Positions 1 through 37,054 of a stretch of DNA of 64,000 bases are shown here, in pieces (position 1 is the stretch's first letter; the number at the start of each line of letters is the position of its first letter). Under the pieces are notes generated by a model, which had not been told where the DNA came from, did not search any database, and was given only the letters and a program-made list of their open reading frames with translations. The stretch lies in sequence record OZ035744.1; one strand, 5' to 3'. The position numbers were made by a program, and so were the translations under genes. The stretch comes from Felixounavirus LF110P1.

Positions 1-741
1 GCACAGCTTTACACAACTGATTTTAAACCAACCCCTTCAGATATCGGTGCATACACTAAAGCTGAGACTGACCAGAAGATTGCACAGGCAGTAAGTGACT
101 CTACAGACCTTAATAAAATCTATCCAGTAGGTATTGTGACATGGTTTAACAGCAATGTTGACCCTAATACAGCACTTCCTGGTCTAACTTGGACTTACCT
201 GAACAATGGTGTTGGTAGAACTATCAGAATTGCAGCAGCAAACGGTTCAGATGTTGCTACAACAGGTGGTTCAGATTCTGTGACGTTAGCTGTTGGTAAC
301 TTACCATCGCACACCCATAGTTTCTCTGCTACCACTTCATCTTTTGATTATGGTACGAAGGGAACTAACAGTACTGGTGGTCATGCTCACTCTGTAAGTG
401 GTACAACAAGTGCTGCTGGTAACCACGCTCACCACTTAGGTTTGTTATTAGTTAATGGTGGTGATGCTTTGTACGGTTATACAACAGTTGGTAACAATAA
501 GACAAGGACTCTTGACTGGCTTGACAGAACTGATAACAAGTTCCCTAACACTAACACAACTGGTAACCATACACACACATGGTCTGGTACTACAAGCAAC
601 ACTGGTGCTCACACCCACTCTGTAGGTATCGGTGCTCACACTCATACAGTTAGTGGTAACACTGGTGGTACAGGTTCTGGTTCAGCATTTAGTGTTACTA
701 ACCAGTTCTACAAGTTAATGGCTTGGGTAAGAACTGCTTAA
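1..741 (+). CDS. tail fibre protein, C-terminal part (5' end outside window)
   Basis: Frame is open from nt 1 with no stop; Gly/Ser/Thr-rich with repeated H-x-H boxes (SHTHS, GGHAHS, GNHAHH, GNHTHT, GAHTHS, GAHTHT) typical of tail-fibre distal domains. Confidence 0.55.
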
Positions 742-820
742 TCCCTTATTGACTGATTGTTAAGATGGTGTTAATATTCTTTATGGGTATTCTCACCATC
801 TTGGCTGATGAGGTGATTAA

Positions 821-1015
821 ATGCCTACAATCCTAGCAATTCTTCTAAAAAATCTAGGTAGCTTCTTCTGGAAACTCATTTTATCCCTTCTAAGTGAATA
901 CATGATTGAGAAAGTGTTCTTTAAGCTTGCAAGATACCTTGCGAGTAAAACAGACACACCTATTGATGATGAGTTCGTAGATAACTTAGAAAAAGCTTTT
1001 AAGGGGGAGAAATAA
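821..1015 (+). CDS. small membrane protein (hypothetical)
   Basis: 64 aa ORF with hydrophobic N-terminus directly after tail-fibre gene. Confidence 0.3.
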   Translation: MPTILAILLKNLGSFFWKLILSLLSEYMIEKVFFKLARYLASKTDTPIDDEFVDNLEKAFKGEK

Positions 1016-1387
1016 ATGAAGTGGCTAGAGGAAGCTTTTAAAAATAATATTGGTGCAATTGTAATTGGTATTTTTAGTGTTATTGGGATGTATACCACTA
1101 TGCAAGTTTCAAGTGGTAAACAAGAAGTGTCTGTCACAACAAAGTTACAGCAGCTAGATAATTATTCCAAAAGTAACTATTCAGCTATTCGTGATTTACA
1201 GTCTGACATGAGACTGATTCAGCTAGGGATGGAGAACCAGAAAGTTCAGTTAGAGAATGTTAAGGGTGAAAACGCAAAACTTACCAAAACTCTTGATAAA
1301 TTCTCTGACAGTGTGAATAATCTGGCTCAATCAGTATCAGCCCTCCAAGCTATTACTGAAAAGAACACAAAGAATACTGAAAAATAA
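1016..1387 (+). CDS. membrane-anchored coiled-coil protein (hypothetical)
   Basis: N-terminal TM helix (IGAIVIGIFSVIGMY) then coiled-coil-like region; RBS GGGGAGAAATAA upstream. Confidence 0.35.
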   Translation: MKWLEEAFKNNIGAIVIGIFSVIGMYTTMQVSSGKQEVSVTTKLQQLDNYSKSNYSAIRDLQSDMRLIQLGMENQKVQLENVKGENAKLTKTLDKFSDSVNNLAQSVSALQAITEKNTKNTEK

Positions 1388-1392
1388 AGTTT

Positions 1393-1424
1393 AAGGCTCC
1401 TTTTTACGGGAGCCTTTTTTGTTT
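1393..1424. terminator. bidirectional rho-independent terminator
   Basis: hairpin AAGGCTCC-TTTTTAC-GGGAGCCTT followed by T-run, between convergent genes. Confidence 0.55.
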
Positions 1425-2323
1425 TACTTACCTACTGACAGAGGTGCTTCAATCTTCCCTGCATGTTGGTAGTTGTTAATGCCACCAATAAAATCACTTG
1501 CAGTGAGATGTTTTAGGTCACTTAAAGTGTTAAGTGGGATACCAATCTCAAAAGTTGGTGCATGGAACTCTTCATTGTTCATCAGTTCATAAACCTGCTT
1601 CATATGGTTCTGATAAATCTGAGTATCTCCAAAGACACCTATCAAATATCGTGGAGTGTATCCAGTCATCTTACAAAGGACTTCCAGAATAAAACCATAA
1701 GATGCAATGTTAAACGGAAGCCCTAAAAAGGTGTCTACAGAACGCTGATACCATTGTAAGTCAACTTCACCCTCGTTGGTGATATAAATCTGAAACAGAA
1801 CATGACAAGGTGCTAAAGCCATTGAGTTTGCTGCAATATCTGCTGCATTCCAAGCGTTAACAAGCATGTAACGGTCTGTGATATCACCCTTCATCTTCGC
1901 TACTAAGGTCTCTAACTGGTCTACAACACAACCATCATGACCCTCAAAGTTTCTCCACTGAACCCCGTAGATTCTACCACCTGCATCCTCTAACCAGTCT
2001 TGTTCAGAGGAATAATTAGAGCTTAACCAGCGTTTAAAATCATCTGACCAGATAGTCCAGCGTTCCCCATCATTTTCACCCCAAGTACGGTAACGAAGTT
2101 CACCAAGTTTATTCTCACCATTCAGGAACCATAAAGCTTCCCCAATAACTTGCCGTGTAAACACCTGTTTAGATGTTAAGAGTGGGAAACCAGTTCGCAT
2201 ATCAAAACGAAACTGTGGTGGAGCAAATGCAGAGATAACATCTCCAGTTCGTGTAGTACGCAGTTCACCAACGGATAAAACATGGTTCAGGATATTTTTG
2301 TAACTCAAATCAGCTTGTGACAT
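1424..2323 (-). CDS. td: thymidylate synthase
   Basis: 299 aa; ThyA-like motifs (FLGLPFNIASYG, PCHVLFQ), thyA-typical length. Confidence 0.9.
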   Translation of the reverse strand: MSQADLSYKNILNHVLSVGELRTTRTGDVISAFAPPQFRFDMRTGFPLLTSKQVFTRQVIGEALWFLNGENKLGELRYRTWGENDGERWTIWSDDFKRWLSSNYSSEQDWLEDAGGRIYGVQWRNFEGHDGCVVDQLETLVAKMKGDITDRYMLVNAWNAADIAANSMALAPCHVLFQIYITNEGEVDLQWYQRSVDTFLGLPFNIASYGFILEVLCKMTGYTPRYLIGVFGDTQIYQNHMKQVYELMNNEEFHAPTFEIGIPLNTLSDLKHLTASDFIGGINNYQHAGKIEAPLSVGK

Positions 2324-7709: not shown

Positions 7710-8273
7710 TCAAGATAGTTTTGCAAACTCTCCGTGGAGTTTCACAGCAGCTTCACAGTAAGCTTTATGGGCTTCTTCAGGGGTGTCAAACATACCAAGA
7801 TGATAGTTTTTACCTTGTAAACGAATCATTGCTCTAAATCTTACACCTATCTTCTGCACACCTTTTGGCAACCCAGATAGGGACTTTCTTGACCGATTGC
7901 AAGAGTTTTGTGAAGCTGTACAAACCCTTAAATTCAAGTACCTATTGTCCCAACCATCACCATTCTTATGGTCAACCTGTAAGGTTTTATCAGGCAGGTA
8001 TCCATCCACATATAGTATTGCTAGACGGTTAGCTTGGTAGCCTTTACCATCAAGCAATAACTGAACAGACTTGTGACCGTCTGTGTTTATCCTATAATTT
8101 CCTGCCTTTTTACCTCCAAAACGAGAGTTGAAGTTCTTATTGCCTCGTGATACCGGCTCTCTAAACTTCCAAGTAAAGACCCCTGTTTCGGGGTCGTAGT
8201 CCAATAGCTCCTTAAGACGAATTTCTGTAATCATTTCAACACCATCAATGTACTTCCAACCAGCTCTTACCAA
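7710..8273 (-). CDS. HNH homing endonuclease with AP2-like DNA-binding domain
   Basis: HNH-like core (QVDHKNGDGWDNRYLNLRVCTASQN) plus C-terminal AP2-like segment (GVRFRAMIRLQGKNYHLGMFDTPEEAHKAY); overlaps 3' end of DNA polymerase gene. Confidence 0.6.
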   Translation of the reverse strand: MVRAGWKYIDGVEMITEIRLKELLDYDPETGVFTWKFREPVSRGNKNFNSRFGGKKAGNYRINTDGHKSVQLLLDGKGYQANRLAILYVDGYLPDKTLQVDHKNGDGWDNRYLNLRVCTASQNSCNRSRKSLSGLPKGVQKIGVRFRAMIRLQGKNYHLGMFDTPEEAHKAYCEAAVKLHGEFAKLS

Positions 8274-10944
8274 CCTTACCTGTGCCAGTTACAAGTGTCT
8301 CACTCTTCAAACCTAAATTCTTAGATGCCTGACCATACATCCAGTCAGTTATGGCTTTAACTTCTTGAGTCATACTTTCTGGGCATTCCCAACTGTTTTC
8401 ATCGTGGTATGCCAGCAAAAGCCTAGCACCAATTGCTGGTTTTCGTCCATTTAATTTTGTCAGTCCTTCTTCACATGCTCTTCTACAAGCAAGGTTAATT
8501 GCCTCATTTTGAATCTGAGCCTCCGAACCCATAAGCAAATAATTCAATAACTTATGTGGAGATTTGCACCACAACCAAGCTCCAGCAACTTTTACAAAGC
8601 CCCCTTTAGAGATTGCAGCAGTCTTACCAAATACCTCTTCAAGTGCCTTTTTAGTTGCTTTGTAGTCAGCTTCCAAGTCATCTAGCAGCTTTTTAATTTT
8701 AGGCAAACGAATAAAGTAAGTCTGTTTAGTCAGCGCACCTTCCTGAGTAGTTGCAGCCTTAATCGTCTTAGCAAACTTCTCATCACCTGCACCGAACAGC
8801 AGTGCATAGATACCATTCTTAGCTTTCTTACGACCCTTGCTAATCTCATGAAGAAGATTCTCATCCTGAGTAGCTCGACAAGTCAAGATGTCCTGCTCAT
8901 CGTTCAAGTTAAAGTAAATACTGTTCAGTGTATGTGCATCAGTCCCTGAATAGACAACGTACAGGTCATTCTCAGAGTCATAGCGAAGGTACTTATCAAT
9001 CTCTGGGTTGAGGTACTCATCAAAGTGTTTACAGTAATAGCGTCCATCTTCTTGACGAATGAACTCAATTTCTTCTTTACCTTGCGTTACCGCTTTGGTG
9101 AAGTCTTTATCACCCATAAAGTTACAAAGAAGAACTAGCTGGGCTGAGTTCATATCTACAGAGACAACGTTAGTACCTTCCTCACAAATCCACACTGCCC
9201 TCATTGGTTCCCCATAGACAGCAGCACCAGATGGTACGTTTACAATACCATACTGTGTCATACGTCCAGTTGAAGTACCAAACACCATTGCACCAGCACT
9301 AAGGCGACCATCAGGACGAATCTGGTTCAACCAACCTTTTTCATCATCCTTTGAGTTCTCAATAGTTCTGCGTCGGTGCATCAAAGTGTAGTATTTAGCA
9401 ATCTTCTGTCCAAGCTCACCTTCAATCGTATCGTAAGATGATTCAGTAAGTTTTGGTGAAGTACGGATTAAGCAAGGCTCAAGCAAATCTGTGTACTTCT
9501 TCACAGACCAGTTATGCTCAATGTACTGGACGCCTTCGTGTTCAACATAACTCAAACCACACCGCTCAACCATTTCCTGCCACTTAGGATGCTTTGTAAT
9601 CATCTTTTTATTGTCTTTGAAACGACAAACTTTGACAGGGCGACCATCAGAGTCTTTCTTGTAGTTCCAGTCATCTGGAATCCAACCAACTGATTTCAAG
9701 TAGTCTTTAACAACTGCTACCTGAGTCATACGAGAAACTTCAAACTCAATTGGTGTATATGGTGCATCAATCAAACCTGTGTAGCGACTTGACTCAAGTT
9801 CAAAGTGGTTAACAACGTGGCTGTTATAGTACTTCACAGTTTTGACTGTTTTTACTGGCTTCCAGTCTTTGCATTTCTTGCCAATCTTTGCGTTCAACTC
9901 ATTGCAAATTGCACGAGCATCCTTCATTGCTACAAAGCCTTCCTTGTACTCTTCACCAGTTACAGTGTTGGTTGGTGTATAGCAATTCCTTTTTTCAATG
10001 TTAAAAATCTTTGTAGTTGGCTTACCAAATGGTTTGATTTCGTATGTCTGCATCTCGCCATTACGTACCTGCTGACGATACTTTGTCTTAGGGTACTTGG
10101 TAATTCTTTTCAGTCCATCTGCATGACCAAATGTTTCAACATACTCATTCCAAGCTTTTGCAAACTCTTCTCCAGTGACTTTACCTTTGGTCTTAATAGT
10201 TGGAGGTAGATGTGGTTCAACCTCTGAAGCAAGCTCATTAGTCAACTTGTCAAGTTCCTTTACATGGAACTCCATAAGCTCTTTATCAGCTTTCCAACCA
10301 TTGATAGCTTGTTGACTCATCCAGAAAGATGTTTCTTTAGCTCGCATGTAGGTTTCATAAGTGTCTATGCCACACTTCTTAAGCTTGAGATACTCATTAT
10401 CAAGTGCCCGTTTAGTTTTGGCGTTAATACGGATATCTTCTACAACACGAGTGAAGATTTCTGCATTCCACACACCCCAATGTTCAATCTCTGGTTTACG
10501 AACACCGACACGAGCACCCCATGCAGCCAAACCATGAGCACCTTTATAACCCTTTGGAGTTGGTCTATCCATCCACTGAACACGAGACTGGATAAGAGAA
10601 TCCTGAAAGAAATTACTCCACGGTTTACACTTTGGATTATCAAAGTTCCATAAATCGGGTGCAATGTGATTGAAAACCCACCAGTCATAACCAAGACCAT
10701 TATGAATGCAAAGACGTTTTGCCTTTAACGCAAACTCAATACCTTCACGTAAGCCACCCTTAATGTACTTGGTATACTTGTGACCGAGGATAGGCTCATC
10801 TGTAAAGACCCATACAGGTGGCTCTTCATCGTCAGATTTATAGTCTGCGAAAGCCATTACGTGCACTTTAGTGAACTCAAGGAGTAAACCATCAGTTTCT
10901 GTATCACCAACTAAATGTAAGTTTTTAAAATCTACGTTTTCCAT
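8245..10944 (-). CDS. DNA polymerase, family A, with 3'-5' exonuclease domain
   Basis: exo motif VGDTETDG at N-terminus; motif B-like KNGIYALLFGAG; motif C LLAYHDE; start placed at MENVDF (GAGGGAG RBS) rather than track start 10974. Confidence 0.9.
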   Translation of the reverse strand: MENVDFKNLHLVGDTETDGLLLEFTKVHVMAFADYKSDDEEPPVWVFTDEPILGHKYTKYIKGGLREGIEFALKAKRLCIHNGLGYDWWVFNHIAPDLWNFDNPKCKPWSNFFQDSLIQSRVQWMDRPTPKGYKGAHGLAAWGARVGVRKPEIEHWGVWNAEIFTRVVEDIRINAKTKRALDNEYLKLKKCGIDTYETYMRAKETSFWMSQQAINGWKADKELMEFHVKELDKLTNELASEVEPHLPPTIKTKGKVTGEEFAKAWNEYVETFGHADGLKRITKYPKTKYRQQVRNGEMQTYEIKPFGKPTTKIFNIEKRNCYTPTNTVTGEEYKEGFVAMKDARAICNELNAKIGKKCKDWKPVKTVKTVKYYNSHVVNHFELESSRYTGLIDAPYTPIEFEVSRMTQVAVVKDYLKSVGWIPDDWNYKKDSDGRPVKVCRFKDNKKMITKHPKWQEMVERCGLSYVEHEGVQYIEHNWSVKKYTDLLEPCLIRTSPKLTESSYDTIEGELGQKIAKYYTLMHRRRTIENSKDDEKGWLNQIRPDGRLSAGAMVFGTSTGRMTQYGIVNVPSGAAVYGEPMRAVWICEEGTNVVSVDMNSAQLVLLCNFMGDKDFTKAVTQGKEEIEFIRQEDGRYYCKHFDEYLNPEIDKYLRYDSENDLYVVYSGTDAHTLNSIYFNLNDEQDILTCRATQDENLLHEISKGRKKAKNGIYALLFGAGDEKFAKTIKAATTQEGALTKQTYFIRLPKIKKLLDDLEADYKATKKALEEVFGKTAAISKGGFVKVAGAWLWCKSPHKLLNYLLMGSEAQIQNEAINLACRRACEEGLTKLNGRKPAIGARLLLAYHDENSWECPESMTQEVKAITDWMYGQASKNLGLKSETLVTGTGKVGKSWLEVH

Positions 10945-10995
10945 TTTTACTCCCTCTAAAATCATTAACCTCATACATTACTGCAAAAAATTATA

Positions 10996-12499: not shown

Positions 12500-13243
12500 A
12501 TGAGTAATATTATCGCATTTACTGGAAAGGCACGCTCTGGAAAAGACACCTCATGTTCTATTGTGAAGAACATCTTAGAGGATGAGTACGGCTACAATGT
12601 TGCTGTAATGGCCTTTGCAGACAACCTTAAAATGTCTGCATCAAAGATATTTGACCTGACTTGGAATGACCTGTATGGTGAAACTAAAGAGACTCCACAG
12701 GTATTTGACTTATCATATCCTGAACTGATGTTTAAAGTTACGGAAGCTATGGAGTTCACCTTCAGAGATGAACGTTACCATATGGACTTCAAGCTTATGT
12801 CAGAGTTAACCGGACGATTAATCATGGAGCTTAAGAAGGTTGCTAAACCTACCCTATTAACACGTCTGGGATTTAGTAAAAAGTATAAATTCTCATCAAG
12901 ACAAATTCAACAGATTTGGGGTACTGAAGTTGTCCGTAAAGTAATGGGCGACAAGTTCTGGTCTAAAGACCTTGAAAAAAGAATGGTTAGATTCCATGAA
13001 ATGTGCTCACTTAGAAATCAATATGGTTTTGTCTTAATCAGTGATTTAAGATTTGACTCTGAAGCTGAATGGCTGAGTAGATTTGCACACCAAACTATTG
13101 AAGTAAAAAGAGACAATGTGGACAAAGTTTCATCACATGTTTCAGAAAATGGGATTTCTACAAAATATGAGCGTGACATTATTCATAATAATGGTACTCT
13201 TGCAGACCTTGAGAACAAGCTAAGAGCCATCATTAAAGTTTAA
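12500..13243 (+). CDS. deoxynucleoside monophosphate kinase
   Basis: N-terminal P-loop IAFTGKARSGKDT resembles T4 gp1 dNMP kinase N-terminus. Confidence 0.65.
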   Translation: MSNIIAFTGKARSGKDTSCSIVKNILEDEYGYNVAVMAFADNLKMSASKIFDLTWNDLYGETKETPQVFDLSYPELMFKVTEAMEFTFRDERYHMDFKLMSELTGRLIMELKKVAKPTLLTRLGFSKKYKFSSRQIQQIWGTEVVRKVMGDKFWSKDLEKRMVRFHEMCSLRNQYGFVLISDLRFDSEAEWLSRFAHQTIEVKRDNVDKVSSHVSENGISTKYERDIIHNNGTLADLENKLRAIIKV

Positions 13244-13251
13244 AAGAGAGA

Positions 13252-13452
13252 ATGAAGATGAGAGTAAAAGACAATTTTAAAGTTATTGACCACCGTTTAG
13301 TGGAACTCTCATCTCTTTCCAATGAGGTAATGATTGAACGTCTTAAGAGAGTTGAATCACGAAGGAAAGAGATTGCAGATGAAATTCATGAACTGGACAA
13401 GATTGAAAATGGATTGAAGGCAGAACTACAACGAAGAGGTGCTAATGTCTAA
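13252..13452 (+). CDS. hypothetical protein
   Basis: 66 aa coiled-coil-like ORF. Confidence 0.4.
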   Translation: MKMRVKDNFKVIDHRLVELSSLSNEVMIERLKRVESRRKEIADEIHELDKIENGLKAELQRRGANV

Positions 13453-15430
13453 AGGTCGTAAATTGAAAGAGGCTGGTCAGTTTGTTGGTCATTGCGCATG
13501 TCCACGTTGTGGTTCATCAGATGCTGGTTCAATCTATCATCATGACGATGATTCTTATTCAATGACTTGCTTTAGTTGTAACAAAGGTTTCCCAGAGTGG
13601 GATTTTGATAAAGGACAAATCGTGAGCACTTATTCTACTGGTTCAGACAATAAAAACCGTACTTTCCGTGGAATGGATTTAGACGATGTAAAAGAAAACC
13701 TAGAAGCAATGGACTTGAAAGATAGGAAGATTCCTGCAAAAGTCCTTGAACGCTTAGGTATCAAGGTTGACATTGACAGTGATGGTGAAATTGACGCGCA
13801 TTTCTATCCAACTTACAAACGTAATGAAGATGGTAAGCTAGAGCACGTTGGCTACCGTGTTCGTCACCGTTACCCAGAAGACCATCCAAAAGAACACCTA
13901 CGAGGTAAGTTAAAAGACTTTTCTGGTGGTGTTGGAGACATTAAAGGTGAACTGGCAATGTTCGGTTCATGGATTGCTCCAGAAGGTGGTAACCGTCTAT
14001 TCATCTGGGAAGGTGAGATGGAATGTGCGACAGCAATCTATATGACTTCTCTTGCGATTAAGGATAAATCTCGTCGTAAGAATTACTGTCACGTATCTGT
14101 TCCATCAGGTGCAAACATCAAGTCTATCAAAGATAACTATCAGTACATTACATCATTTGATGAGATTTACTTGTGCTTTGATAACGATGAAGCAGGTGCT
14201 AAAGCCACTAAAGAGGCTGCTGGTATCCTACCTATTGAGAAGGTTCGTTTATTCCAGTATCCAGAAGGCGTAAAAGACCTTAACGAGTGGTGGACAAAGT
14301 TCTATAAAGAGAAAGACACAGTTCTGGAAGGATTTAAGCAGCGTATCTACAATGCACCTCGTTACTGTCCTGCTGGTATCAAGAACTTTGCAGATGGTTT
14401 TGAGGCAATGAAGAATCGTGGTCAGATTCCATTGATTCCTTTCCCAGAATCTTTCGGAGATTTGAACAGGCTGACTTATGGTGGTTACGGTTTAGGTGAG
14501 ATTACAACTATTGCAGCACCATCTTCAGTAGGTAAGTCAGCTTACACTCGTGAGATGATTTATTCAGCTTGGAAAGAAACTGATTATAATATCGGTGTAA
14601 TTCCTGTAGAAGATACCTATGAAGAGTTGATGGAGATGCTCTGTGCAATCCACCTGAGCAAGCAGATTTCTGAGATTCCTTATGACGAACGTGATTGGGA
14701 TGAATTGAAGAAGGCACACGCAGAACTGTCTAAGGGTCGTCGTATCCACATCGTTGACCATCAAGGGGCAATTGACCAAGATAACTTGCTGGAGTTTGTT
14801 GACTATCTTGTTAACAGCTTAGACTGTAAGATTATTATTCTTGACCCTATTACGTTGGCTCTGTCACGTTCAGATACGGATGAAGAGGAAGTTTTATCTG
14901 AGCTATTGCGTCGTTGCAAACGCTACCAGTATGCACAGGTGAACGTCTGTCACGTTCGTAAGAGTGCAGGTGGTCAGAAGGCTAACTCCGAAGGTGGAGA
15001 TATCTCTGAAGAGGATATTAAAGGTTCTGGTGCGTATTTCCAGATTTCTATGAACAACATTCTATTAATGCGTAACAAGGTTGACCCAGACCCTGTTAAG
15101 AAAAACTTGACAAAAATCAAGTTAACTAAATGCCGTCGTCATGGTAAGTCAACAGGTATTGCTGGTCATACTTGGTACAATCCAGATACAGGACGTCTCA
15201 TTAAAGCCTCTGGTTGTGGAGTTGACATTGATGGTGCAGCAGAAAATATTCGCCAACAGTTTGGTATTGGTGAAGCTGAAGACCATTACGATGACTCTTT
15301 GCCACATTATGAGGATGAAGTGTTTGACCGTGAGACTGGTGAAGTCTATACTGAAGAGCAGCGTCAAAGCTCAACGATTCCACCTGTATTAAGTGAGGAT
15401 GCAGATGACTGCCCGTTCGAAACTGAGTGA
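13445..15430 (+). CDS. primase-helicase (T7 gp4-like)
   Basis: N-terminal zinc ribbon CPRCGSSD...CFSCNKG; Walker A GEITTIAAPSSVGKSAYT; DnaB-like helicase C-terminal half. Confidence 0.85.
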   Translation: MSKGRKLKEAGQFVGHCACPRCGSSDAGSIYHHDDDSYSMTCFSCNKGFPEWDFDKGQIVSTYSTGSDNKNRTFRGMDLDDVKENLEAMDLKDRKIPAKVLERLGIKVDIDSDGEIDAHFYPTYKRNEDGKLEHVGYRVRHRYPEDHPKEHLRGKLKDFSGGVGDIKGELAMFGSWIAPEGGNRLFIWEGEMECATAIYMTSLAIKDKSRRKNYCHVSVPSGANIKSIKDNYQYITSFDEIYLCFDNDEAGAKATKEAAGILPIEKVRLFQYPEGVKDLNEWWTKFYKEKDTVLEGFKQRIYNAPRYCPAGIKNFADGFEAMKNRGQIPLIPFPESFGDLNRLTYGGYGLGEITTIAAPSSVGKSAYTREMIYSAWKETDYNIGVIPVEDTYEELMEMLCAIHLSKQISEIPYDERDWDELKKAHAELSKGRRIHIVDHQGAIDQDNLLEFVDYLVNSLDCKIIILDPITLALSRSDTDEEEVLSELLRRCKRYQYAQVNVCHVRKSAGGQKANSEGGDISEEDIKGSGAYFQISMNNILLMRNKVDPDPVKKNLTKIKLTKCRRHGKSTGIAGHTWYNPDTGRLIKASGCGVDIDGAAENIRQQFGIGEAEDHYDDSLPHYEDEVFDRETGEVYTEEQRQSSTIPPVLSEDADDCPFETE

Positions 15431-29565: not shown

Positions 29566-30447
29566 ATGAAAACTGTTATTGAAGCCGTCATCACCGCACA
29601 AGAGAAATTCTTCCACACAGAAAAATTTAACATCATCCAATTCCCATCTGGAGAAATTGGTGGAAACTTCTCTGAAGATTTTGTTAAGTTTGCTGAGCGT
29701 AATGCTGGTAAGATTGATAATGTTATATTTACTGTACAGGGGTATGACAAAGATACACTGTTTGCATTAGCTTTGGCTAAGGATGCCGTTGACAGTCTTG
29801 TTCCCCAGAAATCAGCGATGAAAACCGTTGTTTTCGGGTTCTTACCAAATGCTCGATATGACCGCCACATGTTCAAAGGTGATGCAGCAGCACTGAAAGT
29901 CTTTGCCAACCTCGTTAATGCAATGGGTTTTGATGCAGTATGTGCTCTTGACCCTCACAGTAATGTTGCAGAAAACTTATTTAAGTGTTTTCAGAGCATG
30001 AAGCAAAAAGATGTGGCAGTACACTTTGCAAGTGACCCACGCATTGATTTCTTAGTAGCCCCAGATGCAGGTGCAGCTAAGAAGACTGAAGATGCCGCTA
30101 AAGAGGTGGATAAACCATATATCACAATGTCTAAAGTGCGTAACCTTAAGACTGGTGAAATTACTGGTATGCGAATCCTTGATGATGTTGATTTGACAGA
30201 TAAAACCGTCATGATTCTGGATGATATTTGTGATGGTGGGCGAACCTTCATAGAGGCAGCTAAACATCTTCGTGAAGCAGGTGCAAAACGTGTGGAACTC
30301 TATGTAACTCATGGTATTTTCTCTAAAGGTGTTGAAAACTTACTTGACAATGGTATTGACCATATCTACACTACAAACTCTTTGGGTGAAGCTAAAGACC
30401 GTGGCTTAACACATTACGCCCAAGTTACTGTAGTAACTATTGATTGA
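29566..30447 (+). CDS. ribose-phosphate pyrophosphokinase-like protein (PRPP synthetase family; candidate ADP-ribose pyrophosphokinase)
   Basis: 293 aa; phosphoribosyltransferase-type PRPP-binding loop VMILDDICDGGRTF; Prs-like length. Confidence 0.7.
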   Translation: MKTVIEAVITAQEKFFHTEKFNIIQFPSGEIGGNFSEDFVKFAERNAGKIDNVIFTVQGYDKDTLFALALAKDAVDSLVPQKSAMKTVVFGFLPNARYDRHMFKGDAAALKVFANLVNAMGFDAVCALDPHSNVAENLFKCFQSMKQKDVAVHFASDPRIDFLVAPDAGAAKKTEDAAKEVDKPYITMSKVRNLKTGEITGMRILDDVDLTDKTVMILDDICDGGRTFIEAAKHLREAGAKRVELYVTHGIFSKGVENLLDNGIDHIYTTNSLGEAKDRGLTHYAQVTVVTID

Positions 30448-30492: not shown

Positions 30493-32274
30493 ATGACTAA
30501 ATCACTTTATGCCGTACCAGCAGGTTTAAACGCAGATGCTTACAAATCTGGTCATGTTTACCAGTATCCTAGTGCAACAGAGTACTTGATGTTCAACCTG
30601 ACACCACGTAGTGACAAATGGTTTAACAGCCCTTTGGCAATTGACGGTGTAGTGGCTTTTGGTATTCAACGTTTCGTTAAAGATTACTTGATAGACCATT
30701 GGAACGCCACTTTCTTTGAACGTGACAAAAAAGAAGCAATTGACGAAATCTTAGAAGTCATGAACGGTGTTCTGGGCAAAGATGCTATTGGTCGAGAGCA
30801 TTGGGAAGCACTTCACGACTTAGGTTATCTGCCAGTCGAAGTATACGCTGTAGAAGAAGGCACAGTTGTTCCGATGCGTGTCCCAATGATTGTATTCCAG
30901 AACACTGTTTCAGGTTTCCATTGGGTAGCGGGGTATCTGGAAGATGCTTTCTCTGCTGAGATTTGGAAGGCTTGTACCATTGCAACTATTGCATTGCACT
31001 ACAAACGTATCTGTAAGAAGTGGGCTGACCTCACTTGTGACAACGACTTCCATTTACCTTATCAGTGCCATGACTTTGCTATGCGTGGTATGTCCGGCTT
31101 TACTGATGACGCATTTAACGCTGTAGGTCACTTAACCAGCTTTAAAGGAACTGATAGCTTCCCTGCTGTATACACTGCTAAACGAATCTATGGTCAGTCT
31201 TACCCAATCTCTGATATTGGTAGTTCTGTACCAGCCACTGAACACTCTGTAATGTGTGCAAACATTGCTTGGGAAGGTGGTAATGAATTGATTGAAGATG
31301 AAAGACGCTTTAAAGGTGAGTTACAAACCTTCCGTCGTTTTTTAACAGAAACTTACCCAACTGGTATTGCAAGTGTTGTTTCAGATACTTATAATTTCTG
31401 GAGAACTGTATCAGTCATATTACCAGAACTCCGTAAAGAGATTATGGAACGCAATGGCAAACTGGTAATTCGTCCTGATTCTGGAGACCCTGTGCATATT
31501 GTCACAGGATACAAAGCAATCCATTTAGAGTGTGCTAAAAAGGCTTATTACGAACACTTAAGCAAGCTTGAAGCCAGCGACACAATGTTGAATGCTGTTC
31601 TGAACATGAAGCTTGAAAACATCAATTATGGTATTGCTGGATGGCTACTGTCAGAAGGCTACGAAATGGTTGTTGACAGAGAAGACTTTGAAGTTGCTGA
31701 TACAGTACTGCTGAAGAATGCTTATATGGTTGGTTCTGCAAACGTTGTAACACGTCCTGTAGCAGAGATTGATGGAGCTATTAAGACCCTGTATAACATC
31801 TTCGGAGGGACTATCAACTCTAAAGGATTCAAGGTACTGGATGAGCATATCGGCCTTATCTATGGTGACTCTATCACGCTGGAACGTGCAAACGAAATCC
31901 TGAAGCGCCTTTATGAAATGGGTTTTGCAAGCTCTAACGTGGTGTTTGGTGTAGGCTCTTACACTTACCAGTACATGACTCGTGACACATTTGCATTTGC
32001 TGTCAAAGCAACTCTTGCAAGCATTGGTGGTAAAGAGATTATGCTTGCAAAAGACCCTAAAACAGATAGCGGTGTTAAGAAATCTGCCTTTGGTGGTGTA
32101 GCGCCTATGTGGGACGGTGATAAACTGAAAGCTGTAGATGGCTACGGATTCCAGAGTTTTGCAGATGTACTTGACCACCAAGCTTGTGCTTTACGTTTAG
32201 TCTTTAGTGACTCTGAGCAGTTTGGTTACACAACTCTTGGTGATATTCGAAATAATATTGACAAGCAGCTTTAA
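30493..32274 (+). CDS. nicotinamide phosphoribosyltransferase-like protein (NadV/NAMPT family)
   Basis: 593 aa with NAMPT-like N-terminus (MTKSLYAVPAGLNADAYKSGH) and length; adjacent to Prs-like gene. Confidence 0.75.
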   Translation: MTKSLYAVPAGLNADAYKSGHVYQYPSATEYLMFNLTPRSDKWFNSPLAIDGVVAFGIQRFVKDYLIDHWNATFFERDKKEAIDEILEVMNGVLGKDAIGREHWEALHDLGYLPVEVYAVEEGTVVPMRVPMIVFQNTVSGFHWVAGYLEDAFSAEIWKACTIATIALHYKRICKKWADLTCDNDFHLPYQCHDFAMRGMSGFTDDAFNAVGHLTSFKGTDSFPAVYTAKRIYGQSYPISDIGSSVPATEHSVMCANIAWEGGNELIEDERRFKGELQTFRRFLTETYPTGIASVVSDTYNFWRTVSVILPELRKEIMERNGKLVIRPDSGDPVHIVTGYKAIHLECAKKAYYEHLSKLEASDTMLNAVLNMKLENINYGIAGWLLSEGYEMVVDREDFEVADTVLLKNAYMVGSANVVTRPVAEIDGAIKTLYNIFGGTINSKGFKVLDEHIGLIYGDSITLERANEILKRLYEMGFASSNVVFGVGSYTYQYMTRDTFAFAVKATLASIGGKEIMLAKDPKTDSGVKKSAFGGVAPMWDGDKLKAVDGYGFQSFADVLDHQACALRLVFSDSEQFGYTTLGDIRNNIDKQL

Positions 32275-32288
32275 AAGTATATGATAAG

Positions 32289-32312
32289 AGGCTCCCGTAG
32301 GAGCCTCTTTAA
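32289..32312 (+). terminator. rho-independent terminator
   Basis: GAGGCTCC-CGTA-GGAGCCTC then TTT. Confidence 0.55.
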
Positions 32313-32327
32313 TTTCTGGAGAAAACT

Positions 32328-32663
32328 ATGAAAATCAAAGAGATGAACATCAACATTGTCTTAGAAGAACGTTGGGAGAACATCAATAAGCCTGAAGATG
32401 GCCATAAGTTCCTTAACAAAATTTTAGTAGCAGCTAAAGAAGAACTGACTGGTAAGATTGCAGCAGCAATCACAATAAAGGTCTGCGTAAAAGGTCTTCC
32501 AGACAATCACCAATTTGCACTTGACGAGTTTAAAGGAAGCTTCTACAATCCAAACAAACAGATGCTTGAAAGTAACTTTGCAGTGTCTACAAGTATCGTT
32601 CATGACAGAAGCTTTATCCTTTACAAGAATATGAGAGGTGAGTCATGCAAGCATATTGGATAG
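32328..32663 (+). CDS. hypothetical protein
   Basis: 111 aa ORF. Confidence 0.4.
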   Translation: MKIKEMNINIVLEERWENINKPEDGHKFLNKILVAAKEELTGKIAAAITIKVCVKGLPDNHQFALDEFKGSFYNPNKQMLESNFAVSTSIVHDRSFILYKNMRGESCKHIG

Positions 32664-32821
32664 AAATTTTGCTGTCACTTGGTAGTGTAGCAGTATTTGT
32701 TTACCTCCTTTGTAAGTACTTTGCAGAGCACAAAAAATGTGACTACTGTAATGGAGAGGGGTACATAAGGGCAGGATGTTGCCCTATGTGTGGTGGTTCT
32801 GGTAAAATGTTTAATAAGTAA
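32645..32821 (+). CDS. small membrane zinc-ribbon protein (hypothetical)
   Basis: 58 aa ORF (below track cutoff): hydrophobic N-terminus then CDYCNG...CPMCGG. Confidence 0.35.
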   Translation: MQAYWIEILLSLGSVAVFVYLLCKYFAEHKKCDYCNGEGYIRAGCCPMCGGSGKMFNK

Positions 32822-32849: not shown

Positions 32850-35216
32850 ATGCGCATGGTAAATGACCACGCAGAAGTGATTAAGAGTTCAACTTCTTTA
32901 GAGACGTCTCAAGCACAGATTACAATGACACCTGAGATGTTCAGCCTTTTGAGTTCTGGTGTGTATACCTTTAAAGAAAGGGCAGTGATTCGTGAACTGT
33001 CATGTAACGCAGTAGATGCTCAGAAAGAAGCTGGAAAAGAGAACATCCCATTCCATGTGCATTTACCTACTCGTTTTGAGCCTTACTTCGAAGTTCGTGA
33101 TTTTGGAACTGGATTGACTCATGATAAAGTTATGAGTTTGTACCTAAACTATGGAGCTTCTACGAAGAATGACTCTAATGACTACATTGGTGCAATGGGT
33201 ATCGGCTCAAAGTCACCATTTGCAATTGCTCAGTCATTCACAGTATCTAGTTATGTTGACGGTGTTGTTAATAAGTACTCTGTTTATCTTGAGAATGGTA
33301 TCCCTCAAGTAACTAAGCTGACAACTAACCAAACAAAAGAACCTAATGGTTTAGCTGTACGTGTGGCAGTTGCTGACCACCGTATCTCAAAGTTCTTTGA
33401 AGAAGCTGGGAATGTGTACTCATACTTCACTGTAAAACCAGAAAGTAATATTGAGTACGACGATGTATTAGCAGATATGAACGTAATTGCCCGTGAAGAA
33501 GGTGTTTATGAGGCCATGATTCATAAGCACAGCTGGCGTTCTAGTGATAACAGGACAGAGTTTAATGTGGTGATGGGTAACATTGCCTATCCAGTGAACA
33601 TGGAAGCGTTACTTGGTGATGATTTCTTCAAAGTCTTGCCAGAGTTTTTCCGTAGGAGCGTAGACCTTGTAAACATCTACATGCCTATTGGTTCAGTTGC
33701 TATTGCAGCTTCTCGTGAAGCATTGCAGATGAATGACACGACAAAAAATGTTATCATTGAGGCTACTAAAAAGATAACTGAAGCCATTACAAAGGATGTT
33801 ATCAAGAAAGTTAATAGCCAACCTACACTCATGGATGCTGCACAGGCTTATGCTGAGTTACGTTTGAACTCACGAGAGATGTTTAATGCTGTGTGTCCAA
33901 AGCTAGAGTGGGGTGGCGTTAAGCTTGATTCTCTGGAAGAAGAATTGCTAAACATTCGTCGTGGAATTATCTACGCAGAAGACGGCTCAGTCATTTACGA
34001 ACGTGACGGTAAAGGTAATATTAAGGTTGATAGGAACGGGAACAATATCCCTAAAGTAGATTATCTTTATGACCCAGTTGCTTATGTCAAGTTTAACTCT
34101 TTAGAGAGTAAGATTCGTGCAACAGCACTATCCTACACTCAAGAGGCGAGCATGTTCAACATCTTTGGTGCAATGCGCAAAAGCCAGATTGGACAGTTTT
34201 TGTTCGTGATTAATGACCGTCGAAATAAAAATGGCACTGAGAAGACTGTTGGGCGTAACCAAATCTTGCGTGGTGCATGTCGAGACTATGCAAGTGAGTC
34301 TAGTCTGTTTCACAGATACAATGGTATTGTCTTTGTATTCTCGACTGAAAAAGAGTTAGATGACTTAATCAATCTGCACAAACTTGATAAAAGTTTGTTA
34401 AAGATTGTGAAAATGTCTGATAAGGAGCACCATTACCAGCGTAAAGAAGCTGTAAGAGGTGTTGTAAAACTCTGGAAAGCTGTTCCAGCAGAAGGTGTAG
34501 CTTCCTATAAAGAGGTTTCAGAAGACTTTGATACAATTGAAGAGCCTCAGCTTTACATTAAGGCAGTTGGTGACACAGTTGATGGCGAATGTTTTTGCTC
34601 ATCTCCAGAAGATGTAGCCAAGTCAGTTGCTAATGTTACAGGGAAGACAGTCTATGTTTTCCGAAAAGCAAATTGGAAAAAGATACCAGAAGACTGGATT
34701 GAAGTAGATGAGAAACTCTTGAACGATAGCTTAACTGATGTTCATTGGATTAATCATAACAGGTATATGACACGTATCTATATGAATGGTGTCCTTGACC
34801 TTACAAGCAGTTGGATTATTGCCAGAAACTTTACGTTCAATAACAGGAAGATTTCTCGTGGCTATTGCTATTCACGGGATACAAACAAAACTATCTTCCT
34901 AGAAGGTAATGAAGAGGCTGTAGAGGCAATGTTTGGTAAAATCCAGTATGTTGCTGCACCATTTGCATACACTTACACTATTAGTGTGTTGAAAACTTTG
35001 AAAGATTGTCTTGACAACGATACAAAGCTTTACAAGAAAATTAAGAAAGCTGGTGACCGTATGGTTATTAAGGTGACAAACTACCTTTCAAAAAGAAAAC
35101 AAGAAAACTTCTTGCTTTCCCATTTAGATTGGAATAAAGTGTCACCCATCGAAGTGAGTAAGTTCTTAGGTTTTGATGTGAAGTGTGTTCCAGAAGGAAC
35201 TACAGTTTACGATTAA
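32850..35216 (+). CDS. rIIA: rIIA-like protein (GHKL ATPase fold)
   Basis: 788 aa; N-terminal Bergerat-fold motifs (ELSCNAVDA, DFGTGL, MGIGSKS); followed by rIIB homologue. Confidence 0.7.
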   Translation: MRMVNDHAEVIKSSTSLETSQAQITMTPEMFSLLSSGVYTFKERAVIRELSCNAVDAQKEAGKENIPFHVHLPTRFEPYFEVRDFGTGLTHDKVMSLYLNYGASTKNDSNDYIGAMGIGSKSPFAIAQSFTVSSYVDGVVNKYSVYLENGIPQVTKLTTNQTKEPNGLAVRVAVADHRISKFFEEAGNVYSYFTVKPESNIEYDDVLADMNVIAREEGVYEAMIHKHSWRSSDNRTEFNVVMGNIAYPVNMEALLGDDFFKVLPEFFRRSVDLVNIYMPIGSVAIAASREALQMNDTTKNVIIEATKKITEAITKDVIKKVNSQPTLMDAAQAYAELRLNSREMFNAVCPKLEWGGVKLDSLEEELLNIRRGIIYAEDGSVIYERDGKGNIKVDRNGNNIPKVDYLYDPVAYVKFNSLESKIRATALSYTQEASMFNIFGAMRKSQIGQFLFVINDRRNKNGTEKTVGRNQILRGACRDYASESSLFHRYNGIVFVFSTEKELDDLINLHKLDKSLLKIVKMSDKEHHYQRKEAVRGVVKLWKAVPAEGVASYKEVSEDFDTIEEPQLYIKAVGDTVDGECFCSSPEDVAKSVANVTGKTVYVFRKANWKKIPEDWIEVDEKLLNDSLTDVHWINHNRYMTRIYMNGVLDLTSSWIIARNFTFNNRKISRGYCYSRDTNKTIFLEGNEEAVEAMFGKIQYVAAPFAYTYTISVLKTLKDCLDNDTKLYKKIKKAGDRMVIKVTNYLSKRKQENFLLSHLDWNKVSPIEVSKFLGFDVKCVPEGTTVYD

Positions 35217-35295
35217 AGTGTTTGACAAGGGGCTTCAAAGCCCCTTAGAATATCCTCACAAAATGATTTATTAACTAACAAGAGAGAGTAATAAG

Positions 35296-36405
35296 ATGAC
35301 TACTAAAACTAAAGCACAGATTGACGCAGAAATTTACAAACTGGTTAAAGAAGGTAAGCTGACTAAAACAGCTATTGCACAGAAATTTAATACTTCAACC
35401 CGTTCAGTCGGTCGTGCTGTAGAGCGTCATGAAGCAACATTAAAAGGGAATAAGAAGGTAACTTCTACACCAGCTACGAAGACTTTGAAACAAGTTGCTA
35501 AGACCTTTAAGAAGAAAGCTGGAAAACCAGTTGAAAAGGTAGTTAAAGACGCTGTACAGAAAGCTCCAGTAAATAAACTGCACGAAGCTATGCAGAAAGA
35601 TGACAAGATTGAGTACATGATTACTGGTGATTCTGTAATTATGACTTATGGTTCAGAATCTGAAATTGTTGAGTCTACTCATCCGAACTATCAAGAGATT
35701 GTAGTTCATGTTGTGAAAGGTGAGTTCAAGAAAGCATTTGAACTGATGAACATTCGTAAGTCTATCGAAAACTTCACGCAGGGAGCTATCACAATCAAAG
35801 GTGATAAGCTATTCTACGGTGCTGTTGAGATGCGTTCTACTCTGGTTGACCGTATACTTCACATGATGAAGACTGGTGATAAAGGTTTTGAACGACTTGT
35901 AATGTTCTTCGAAAAACTGATGGAAAACCCATCTAAAGATTCTGTAGAACAACTTTGGGGATTCATATCTCACCTTGATGTTGAAATTGATGAAGAAGGC
36001 TACATCATTGGTTGGAAGAAAGTCTCTACTCGTGAAGGCAAGCTGGTTGACTCCCGCACCTGCAAAGTACCTAATGATTTGGGTAACATTGTAGAAATGC
36101 CACGTTGGATGGTTGATAATAACCGTAACGTGACTTGCTCTCAAGGTCTTCACGTTGGTGCTTGGGATTATGTTCGTTACTTCTCAGGTGATACAATTCT
36201 GAAGGTTCGTGTCCATCCACGAGACGTTGTATCCGTACCAACTGATTACAACGATATGAAGATGCGCTCGTCTCGTTATGAAGTTGCAGCAATCGTTGAT
36301 AATCAACGTAAAGTACTGAAAGCATGGGATGGCAAGACTGAAGCTTTGCATGTCATCGTTGGTACTGCTGGAGAACTTATCTCTGAGCGTAAACGTGAAA
36401 TCTAA
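35296..36405 (+). CDS. rIIB: rIIB-like protein
   Basis: 369 aa; segments recalled as conserved in T4 rIIB (LFYGAVEMRSTLVDRIL, CSQGLHV, VRVHPRDVVSVPTDYNDMKMRSSRYEV). Confidence 0.7.
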   Translation: MTTKTKAQIDAEIYKLVKEGKLTKTAIAQKFNTSTRSVGRAVERHEATLKGNKKVTSTPATKTLKQVAKTFKKKAGKPVEKVVKDAVQKAPVNKLHEAMQKDDKIEYMITGDSVIMTYGSESEIVESTHPNYQEIVVHVVKGEFKKAFELMNIRKSIENFTQGAITIKGDKLFYGAVEMRSTLVDRILHMMKTGDKGFERLVMFFEKLMENPSKDSVEQLWGFISHLDVEIDEEGYIIGWKKVSTREGKLVDSRTCKVPNDLGNIVEMPRWMVDNNRNVTCSQGLHVGAWDYVRYFSGDTILKVRVHPRDVVSVPTDYNDMKMRSSRYEVAAIVDNQRKVLKAWDGKTEALHVIVGTAGELISERKREI

Positions 36406-36422
36406 TAAGTAATTTCTTAAAA

Positions 36423-36446
36423 GGCTGCTTCGGCGGCCTTTTTTAT
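36423..36446 (+). terminator. rho-independent terminator
   Basis: GGCTGC-TTCG-GCGGCC then TTTTTT. Confidence 0.6.
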
Positions 36447-36505: not shown

Positions 36506-37054
36506 ATGAAGAAATTGATTCTAGGTTTGTGCTTAATGTTTACAGCACACTTATCTTATGCAGTTGACTGCCCAGAGCTATCAATTAGCCAAAAAGTAAA
36601 CATGTTAAAAGCTTACCAGTATGGTGAGAACAACATGGGTAAAGGTTGGGGTATCACTCTAGCTGCTATAGCCTTACAAGAGTCAGAGTTAGGTCTGAAG
36701 GTAGAGAATAAAAAGACACATGATTATGGTATTTTCCAGAATCACTTGAAGACTGTTGTAAAGCGTAACAAAATTAGCCCTAATGTGGCTAAAAAGAAAC
36801 TCTTAAAAGACTTTGACTATGCTGCAAAGGAAACGCACAAAGAGCTTGAGTTTTGGACAAAGGTACATGGTCAGCCAAAGTCAAAGAAGACTTTACAAAA
36901 AGTTTTAGCATCATATAATGCTGGGTATTCGTACAGAATCCCTAAAGCTAAGAAGTATTCTCAAGATGTCTATAACAACATGAAAGTTATTGCTCAATGT
37001 GAATTTGCAACAAACATTTCTAAGGTAAATCATGAAAAAATTAAGAAAGTCTGA
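36506..37054 (+). CDS. secreted lytic transglycosylase-like protein (candidate)
   Basis: signal peptide MKKLILGLCLMFTAHLSYA; SLT-like motifs ALQESELGL, GIFQN, SYNAG. Confidence 0.45.
   Translation: MKKLILGLCLMFTAHLSYAVDCPELSISQKVNMLKAYQYGENNMGKGWGITLAAIALQESELGLKVENKKTHDYGIFQNHLKTVVKRNKISPNVAKKKLLKDFDYAAKETHKELEFWTKVHGQPKSKKTLQKVLASYNAGYSYRIPKAKKYSQDVYNNMKVIAQCEFATNISKVNHEKIKKV

Follow-up and report, generated by a model that had tools for sequence, protein, structure and literature searches.

The rIIA-rIIB gene pair of Felixounavirus LF110P1 as a probable counter-defence module

In bacteriophage T4, insertions in the rIIA and rIIB genes are depleted only when the RexAB system is present (bioRxiv 10.1101/2025.11.20.689424). 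Similar results have been obtained with phages of the subfamily Ounavirinae. In SUSP1, knocking down either RIIA or RIIB by CRISPRi-ART reduces plating on E. coli carrying the RexAB system of phage lambda and leaves plating on Rex-free E. coli unchanged (PMC11879866), and in the Felixounavirus Bas63 deletion of either rIIA or rIIB lowers plating 10^4-10^5-fold on a host with qatABCD, with complementation restoring it (PMC11482910, preprint). RexA binds DNA and RexB has four transmembrane segments (PMC11077077), while QatA is an ATPase, QatC resembles QueC and QatD is a TatD nuclease (PMC11482910). On its own, RIIB of phage T6 is toxic to E. coli and is enough to set off a CARD-gasdermin system (PMC10312443). 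In Felix O1, rIIA and rIIB have been annotated since 2010 (PMC3185647). The present analysis concerns the corresponding pair in a 64,000-nucleotide stretch of DNA from Felixounavirus LF110P1 (sequence record OZ035744.1), which is referred to here in its entirety as the window and whose positions are used throughout. Both genes lie on the + strand, rIIA at 32850..35216, encoding 788 amino acids (aa), and rIIB at 35296..36405, encoding 369 aa.

We put the probability at roughly 85% that this pair represents the Felixounavirus orthologues of rIIA and rIIB and would serve as a counter-defence module, dispensable on naive hosts and needed against RexAB or QatABCD. Judged from the work on relatives, a counter-defence role in the Felixounavirus lineage is well supported and broader than Rex. 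An initial annotation of the window, made from the sequence, had already recognized an rIIA-rIIB homologue pair here. Its open reading frame (ORF) coordinates and lengths are exact, and the pair was correctly identified, as one already known from Felix O1-like phages. The escape from Rex-type exclusion that the annotation named for T4 is backed by the published work on SUSP1 with RexAB (PMC11879866) and on Bas63 with QatABCD (PMC11482910).

Pairwise alignment with the T4 proteins, by which the initial annotation proposed to check the identification, is significant for both genes. The rIIA protein is 32% identical to T4 rIIA across aa 24-317 (BLASTP, 306 columns, E=1e-36), a match that spans only the N-terminal ~300 aa of rIIA, and a profile built from 77 homologues aligns with T4 rIIA over 550 columns at a probability of 100% (hhalign, E=6.5e-58). 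The rIIB protein is 37% identical to T4 rIIB, with aa 11-339 aligned to T4 residues 13-312 (BLASTP, E=1e-60), and matches T2 and other T-even phages at E values of about 1e-50 (tblastn). Family profiles give the same assignment. The phrog_612 family 'RIIA' is matched at E=4.9e-188, aa 1-770 falling on positions 1-716 of the 725 in the profile, and T4 rIIA belongs to the same family (E=9e-250, likewise over its full length); the phrog_609 family 'RIIB' is matched at E=4.8e-89 and also contains T4 rIIB (6.6e-111). Neither protein has a trusted match in the local copies of NCBIfam and of Pfam (the latter lacking PF26926), where only sub-threshold HATPase_c/HSP90 and helix-turn-helix (HTH) hits were obtained, so the assignment to the rII family rests on PHROGs, the T4 alignments and structure. 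Some rIIA homologues carry PF13589, and PF26926 is precomputed on rIIB homologues down to 32% identity. The phrog_609 profile, which has 1055 positions, is matched by both proteins of the pair, in T4 and in the window alike, the N-terminal part of rIIA falling on positions ~20-310 and rIIB on ~750-1049 (31-299 and 755-1048 for the window proteins). This double match hints at fused rIIA-rIIB proteins, or at merged annotations, within the family; among the top 120 matches of either search there is no fused homologue, the longest being 549 and 816 aa.

Three regions can be distinguished in rIIA, all encoded on the + strand. Motifs and profiles define a GHKL (Bergerat-fold) ATP-binding domain at aa 24-200 (32919..33449), which is followed by a transducer-like second domain of the ATPase module at aa 201-330 (33450..33839), with invariant R289/E290, and by a poorly conserved C-terminal region at aa 331-788 (33840..35216). 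The likeness to the GHKL motifs of T4 rIIA that had been noticed earlier holds residue by residue: the N-box (E49xxxN53xxD56), G1 (D84xGxG88) and G2 (G114xxGxG119) are matched in T4 at E47, D81 and G117. The motif residues are invariant across the 77-sequence family alignment, and mean identity within the domain is still 50% when distant homologues are compared. The C-terminal region, which is modelled confidently, is 12-13% identical to distant members of the family.

Structural comparison of rIIA finds TRAP1/Hsp90 as the closest relative (score 19.3, aligned length 331), followed by MORC2 (18.6, 273), MORC3 (18.3, 266), SMCHD1 (17.4, 284), the Topo II, Topo IV ParE and Topo VI-B group (about 17, 245-357) and MutL (16.2, 249), with histidine kinases at 8 or lower over about 100-120. 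The aligned lengths imply that the transducer-like domain (aa ~201-330) is present as well as the Bergerat fold (aa ~24-200), and on the evidence of the model rIIA is structurally a member of the gyrase/Hsp90/MutL/MORC branch of GHKL ATPases. Members of this branch are ATP-driven dimerising clamps. Among sequences in the PDB, the rIIA family profile finds TRAP1 (E=3.4e-5), where a search with the single sequence found no match, and the NCBIfam HSP90 family is hit at E=2.2e-11, below its threshold. The ATP site is intact, and from its invariant residues we infer ATP binding, ATP hydrolysis and ATP-dependent N-terminal dimerisation. A PADLOC match to TmtA is weak, reflects GHKL-level similarity only and was set aside as uninformative.

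The AlphaFold2 model of rIIB has a mean predicted local distance difference test (pLDDT) score of 85.3 and falls into four parts. Three helices make up the N-terminal domain (aa 6-49), which a Lys-rich, disordered linker (aa 53-89, pLDDT below 50) joins to a middle domain of mixed alpha/beta structure (aa 94-224), and the C-terminal domain (aa 235-366) is beta-rich. The N-terminal segment is an HTH of the sigma region 4 / LuxR / DeoR type (35311..35442, +). It is missing from 42 of the 78 rIIB homologues, whereas the core at aa 94-338 (35575..36309, +), which includes MPRW, CSQGLHV and VHPRDVV...KMR, is universal and the most conserved part of the protein. The three segments that the initial annotation had named as typical of rIIB are indeed present, MPRW at aa 268, CSQGLHV at aa 281 and VHPRDVVSVPTDYNDMKMR at aa 306, and they align with MPRTRV, CSRGLHV and VHPRDVVSIPIDYNDAKMR in T4 rIIB. 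All of the C-terminal core motifs (MPR, C-S-x-G-L-H-V and V-x-P-x-D-V-V-S-V-P...K-M-R) are found, and 79 rIIB sequences without exception keep R270, C281, G284, P308, V312, P315, K322 and R324. No relative of rIIB was found among PDB sequences by single-sequence or profile search. As modelled, rIIB is best described as an optional HTH joined to a conserved core with no solved structural relative.

How such a pair could defeat defence systems is suggested by these structures together with the published phenotypes. Like its structural relatives, rIIA may function as an ATP-driven dimerising clamp or remodeller, working with rIIB. Most likely, the two proteins would remove or mask an infection-induced cellular signal that is sensed by unrelated defences, and they probably do not inhibit each effector singly. 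Removal of a shared signal is favoured because one pair defeats two systems, RexAB and QatABCD, whose parts are unrelated. Since T6 RIIB is toxic and triggers a CARD-gasdermin system, RIIB would act on, or be visible within, the host cell. Several considerations weigh against a counter-defence module of this kind in the window. Identity between the rIIB of the window and that of Bas63 is no more than 82%, which leaves room for a different specificity; the Bas63 QatABCD result, obtained by PhageMaP (PMC11482910), is a preprint; and the description of the proteins, in the classical literature and in current T4 annotation, as a membrane-associated 'membrane integrity protector' would fit action at the membrane, at the level of the effector. 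The recent papers on QatABCD structure make no mention of rII or of triggers.

The main rival explanation takes up this last annotation, and we regard it as possible though clearly less probable than removal of a shared signal. It holds that rIIA and rIIB attach peripherally to the inner membrane, where they directly counter a depolarising effector (the RexB channel or, as proposed, QatB), either blocking it or making up for its effect, while sensing itself is not prevented. Besides the classical T4 annotation, it can draw on the finding that RexAB works by membrane depolarisation (PMC11879866; bioRxiv 10.1101/2025.11.20.689424), on the similar proposal made for QatB by the authors of PhageMaP (PMC11482910) and on a conserved 58-aa ORF with membrane and zinc-finger features, which in Ounavirinae is found 27 nt upstream of rIIA. 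However, no hydrophobic segment of rIIA or rIIB is long enough to be predicted as a membrane helix, the maximum 19-residue hydropathy being 1.29 in rIIA and 0.69 in rIIB, and the proteins closest to rIIA in structure are soluble clamps that remodel DNA or client proteins. Direct inhibition would need two specificities, given that RexB is unrelated to the Qat proteins. The recent structural papers on QatABCD describe no membrane role either (the word 'membrane' occurs zero times in PMC13279940), and the PhageMaP screen names g84 and g85 as the only Qat counters, the small ORF not being flagged (PMC11482910).

A second rival, which seems unlikely, regards rIIB mainly as a transcription factor by which phage transcription is adjusted to the physiology of the host, rIIA being the ATP-dependent partner; evasion of defence would then be an indirect effect of changed gene expression. 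Such a role has been proposed (PMC7824862), and the HTH of rIIB, of the sigma-4/LuxR/DeoR type, is modelled confidently. Yet the HTH is optional in the family, which weakens the case, conservation being concentrated in the core that every homologue keeps; and knockdown or deletion of the genes has no phenotype when no defence system is present.

The 58-aa ORF mentioned above occupies 32645-32821 (+), encodes MQAYWIEILLSLGSVAVFVYLLCKYFAEHKKCDYCNGEGYIRAGCCPMCGGSGKMFNK and belongs to phrog_3931, a family of unknown function. In its product, an N-terminal membrane helix (hydropathy 2.1) is accompanied by two CxxCxGxG motifs of the DnaJ zinc-finger type. It is kept beside rIIA in 257 records, all of them from enterobacterial Ounavirinae, and the idea that it is a general component of rII systems was rejected on account of this confinement. 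T4 has an rIIA.1 gene that belongs to a different family from the 58-aa ORF, without membrane helix and without zinc finger. A more elaborate version of signal removal would make the pair a generic 'signal eraser', in which a MORC/Hsp90-like clamp and the rIIB core are held by the 58-aa ORF acting as a lineage-specific membrane tether. We consider it improbable, more so than the transcriptional role; the ORF was not flagged by PhageMaP as a Qat counter and is confined to enterobacterial Ounavirinae.

The initial annotation had also pointed out that the genes for nicotinamide adenine dinucleotide (NAD+) metabolism lie upstream of the pair and that the replication genes are of a different type from those of T4, and had read the latter as a sign of module exchange. 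The genes themselves are confirmed by Pfam on the window: a family A DNA polymerase is encoded by a single 909-aa ORF at 8245..10974 (-), and a gp4-like primase-helicase with Toprim and DnaB_C domains lies at 13439..15430 (+). Exchange as a specific or recent event is unsupported by synteny, by composition, by the 32-37% identity to T4 and by the 2,910 rIIB records, and recent horizontal acquisition of the pair from a T4-like phage into a genome of the PolA/gp4 type appears very improbable. In its favour, the closest match to rIIB outside Ounavirinae comes from T-even phages and extends over almost the full length including the HTH, the patchy distribution of rII across phage families means that ancient transfers must have occurred, and the locus is mosaic within Felixounavirus, as the identities of 97% for rIIA and 82% for rIIB between the window and Bas63 indicate. 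Against recent acquisition, identity to T4 is low and synteny is kept across genera of Ounavirinae. The pair is found in the same position in the felixounaviruses REP5, Bas63 and FSL SP-107 and in SUSP1, which belongs to a different genus, implying that it is ancestral to the subfamily, and relatives from Erwinia and Pectobacterium hold it at 55-58% identity. Neither GC content (0.394 in rIIA and 0.401 in rIIB vs 0.387 in the window) nor GC content at third codon positions (0.36/0.33 vs 0.36/0.32 in the neighbouring NAD genes) gives a compositional sign of foreign origin at rIIA-rIIB.

Homologues of rIIB are present in 2,910 phage records that span many families with differing replication machinery, among them T-even, Vi1-like, N4-like podoviral, Streptomyces, Rhizobium and jumbo phages. 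This breadth indicates that rII is a widespread accessory module that is not tied to T4-type replication, and it has already been published in the BASEL (PMC8594841) and CRISPRi-ART (PMC11879866) studies. The weakest alternative, that the two ORFs are decaying or non-functional remnants, could appeal to the annotation of ULIM9 rIIA as two ORFs and to the dispensability of rII on laboratory hosts, but it is effectively refuted by intactness and conservation, since both ORFs are full length, keep all of the family-invariant residues and share 97-99% identity with their counterparts in many isolates and with Bas63 rIIA, whose function has been tested.

A 5-kb region around the pair shares 95-97.5% nucleotide identity with dozens of Felixounavirus genomes (megablast), and for the window as a Felixounavirus the figure against many isolates is about 96-97%. 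The close matches include FSL SP-107, ULIM9, REP5, KhF1/2 and UAB_Phi87, and most of them already label the genes rIIA and rIIB. The gene order is Prs, NAMPT, small ORFs, rIIA, rIIB, a 182-aa ORF and polynucleotide kinase. Pfam identifies ribose-phosphate pyrophosphokinase (Prs) at 29566..30447 (+), directly upstream of NAMPT at 30493..32274 (+), and a 111-aa ORF (32328-32663, +) lies between NAMPT and rIIA together with the 58-aa ORF. According to the PhageMaP preprint, genes 79 and 80 of Bas63, which encode Prs and NAMPT, counter the NAD+-depleting defence Sir2-HerA (PMC11482910). With rIIA and rIIB added to these counterparts, the region from 29.5 to 36.4 kb can be regarded as a counter-defence cluster.

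Relatives differ in a few details of this neighbourhood. An extra 345-bp ORF for a hypothetical protein separates NAMPT from the 111-aa ORF in Bas63, FSL SP-107 and several other relatives (9509-9853 in L009, the Bas63 record, and 529-873 in L010), while the window (32274 to 32328), REP5 and ULIM9 are without it; its presence or absence accounts for a length difference of ~350 bp in the megablast matches. The polymerase of REP5 (record positions 75730-78697) is annotated in two parts with an HNH endonuclease after them, whereas that of the window is one ORF, so the mobile endonuclease or intron content at this place varies among felixounaviruses. In vB_EcoM_ULIM9, which is 97% identical, the two ORFs annotated for rIIA are 1509 and 804 nt long (1051-3416 of L011), either because rIIA is naturally disrupted in this isolate or because of a frameshift that arose in sequencing. 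Just downstream of rIIB, the 182-aa ORF (36506-37054, +) has a signal-peptide-like N-terminus (MKKLILGLCLMFTAHLSYA), belongs to phrog_600, a family of unknown function, and has zero Pfam matches. Its E-S...G-I-F-Q motifs recall lytic transglycosylases, and its equivalent in phage heid is labelled 'putative lysin'.

Candidate transcription signals, all on the + strand, flank and divide the pair. Just after the NAMPT stop codon, a consensus match to a promoter (TTGACA-16-TATGAT) is followed by a 10-bp hairpin (32258..32309), and this site is likely to be the upstream boundary of a unit containing the two small ORFs, rIIA and rIIB. At the other end, 14 nt past the rIIB stop codon, a consensus match to an intrinsic terminator (36419..36442) consists of a hairpin with a 10-bp stem containing five GC pairs, followed by a T-run, TTATTTGTAT. 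Between the two genes, a consensus scan finds a promoter-like TTGACA-18-TAGAAT with 11 of 12 matches (35222..35251). The spacer of this site is wholly filled by a perfect 7-bp GC hairpin, AGGGGCTTCAAAGCCCCT, with a dG of -11.6 kcal/mol, and no second promoter spacer filled by a hairpin was found among the 22 exact-TTGACA sites in the window. The element could be a promoter-embedded stem-loop or a signal for the formation or processing of the 3' end of the rIIA message.

For the window itself little is at stake, given that the genes are orthologues of a famous pair and have long been annotated. The broader interest lies in the biochemical mechanism of the rII family, about 70 years after Benzer, for which the hypotheses are now narrowed by a GHL/MORC-type ATPase module in rIIA and by a conserved core in rIIB with no solved relative and an optional HTH, neither protein having a membrane segment. 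A counter-defence cluster made up of the rII pair and the NAD+-salvage genes is also relevant to the choice of Felix O1-like phages for therapy and biocontrol.

Compared with known systems, the ATPase part of rIIA resembles the GHL/MORC-type GHKL ATPases (Hsp90/TRAP1, MORC2/3, SMCHD1, TopoII/VI-B and MutL) in having a two-domain module with N-box, G1 and G2 motifs, at a sequence identity of about 11-14%. The partner domains of those proteins, Toprim, CW, coiled coil, the MutL C-terminal endonuclease and the Hsp90 C-terminal dimerisation domain, are absent from rIIA, and no relative was identified for its C-terminal 450 aa. In T4 (NC_000866), rIIA (12..2189) and rIIB (167965..168903) are in the same order as in the window, adjacent and on one strand, although in T4 across the genome ends. 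The rIIA proteins have common GHKL motifs and the rIIB proteins a common HTH and common C-terminal motifs. The window proteins are longer, 788 vs 725 aa for rIIA and 369 vs 312 aa for rIIB, where the extra length is mainly the Lys-rich disordered linker at aa 53-89, and the spacer between the genes is 79 nt with a promoter-like site vs about 11 nt in T4. The PhageMaP text describes RIIA/B of Bas63 as highly homologous in sequence (>80%) to their T4 counterparts (PMC11482910); the window proteins, near-identical to those of Bas63, measure 32% (N-terminal part of rIIA) and 37% (rIIB) against T4.

Bas63 (JohannRWettstein, MZ501086) is a Felixounavirus with the same synteny apart from its extra ORF after NAMPT, and its bas63_0084 and bas63_0085 are 97.2% and 82.3% identical to rIIA and rIIB of the window. 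The differences in rIIB cluster at aa 61-150, 241-300 and 331-369, so that the rII locus is mosaic within the genus, with rIIB (window 35296-36405 vs 12827-13933 in Bas63) diverged and rIIA not. The rIIB of REP5 is 99.2% identical to that of the window, and the pattern across Bas63 and REP5 suggests recombination or diversifying selection on rIIB. SUSP1 (KT454805), from another genus of Ounavirinae, has a homing endonuclease inserted between Prs and NAMPT and carries the pair in the same neighbourhood, full length, with 63% identity in rIIA and 80% in rIIB.

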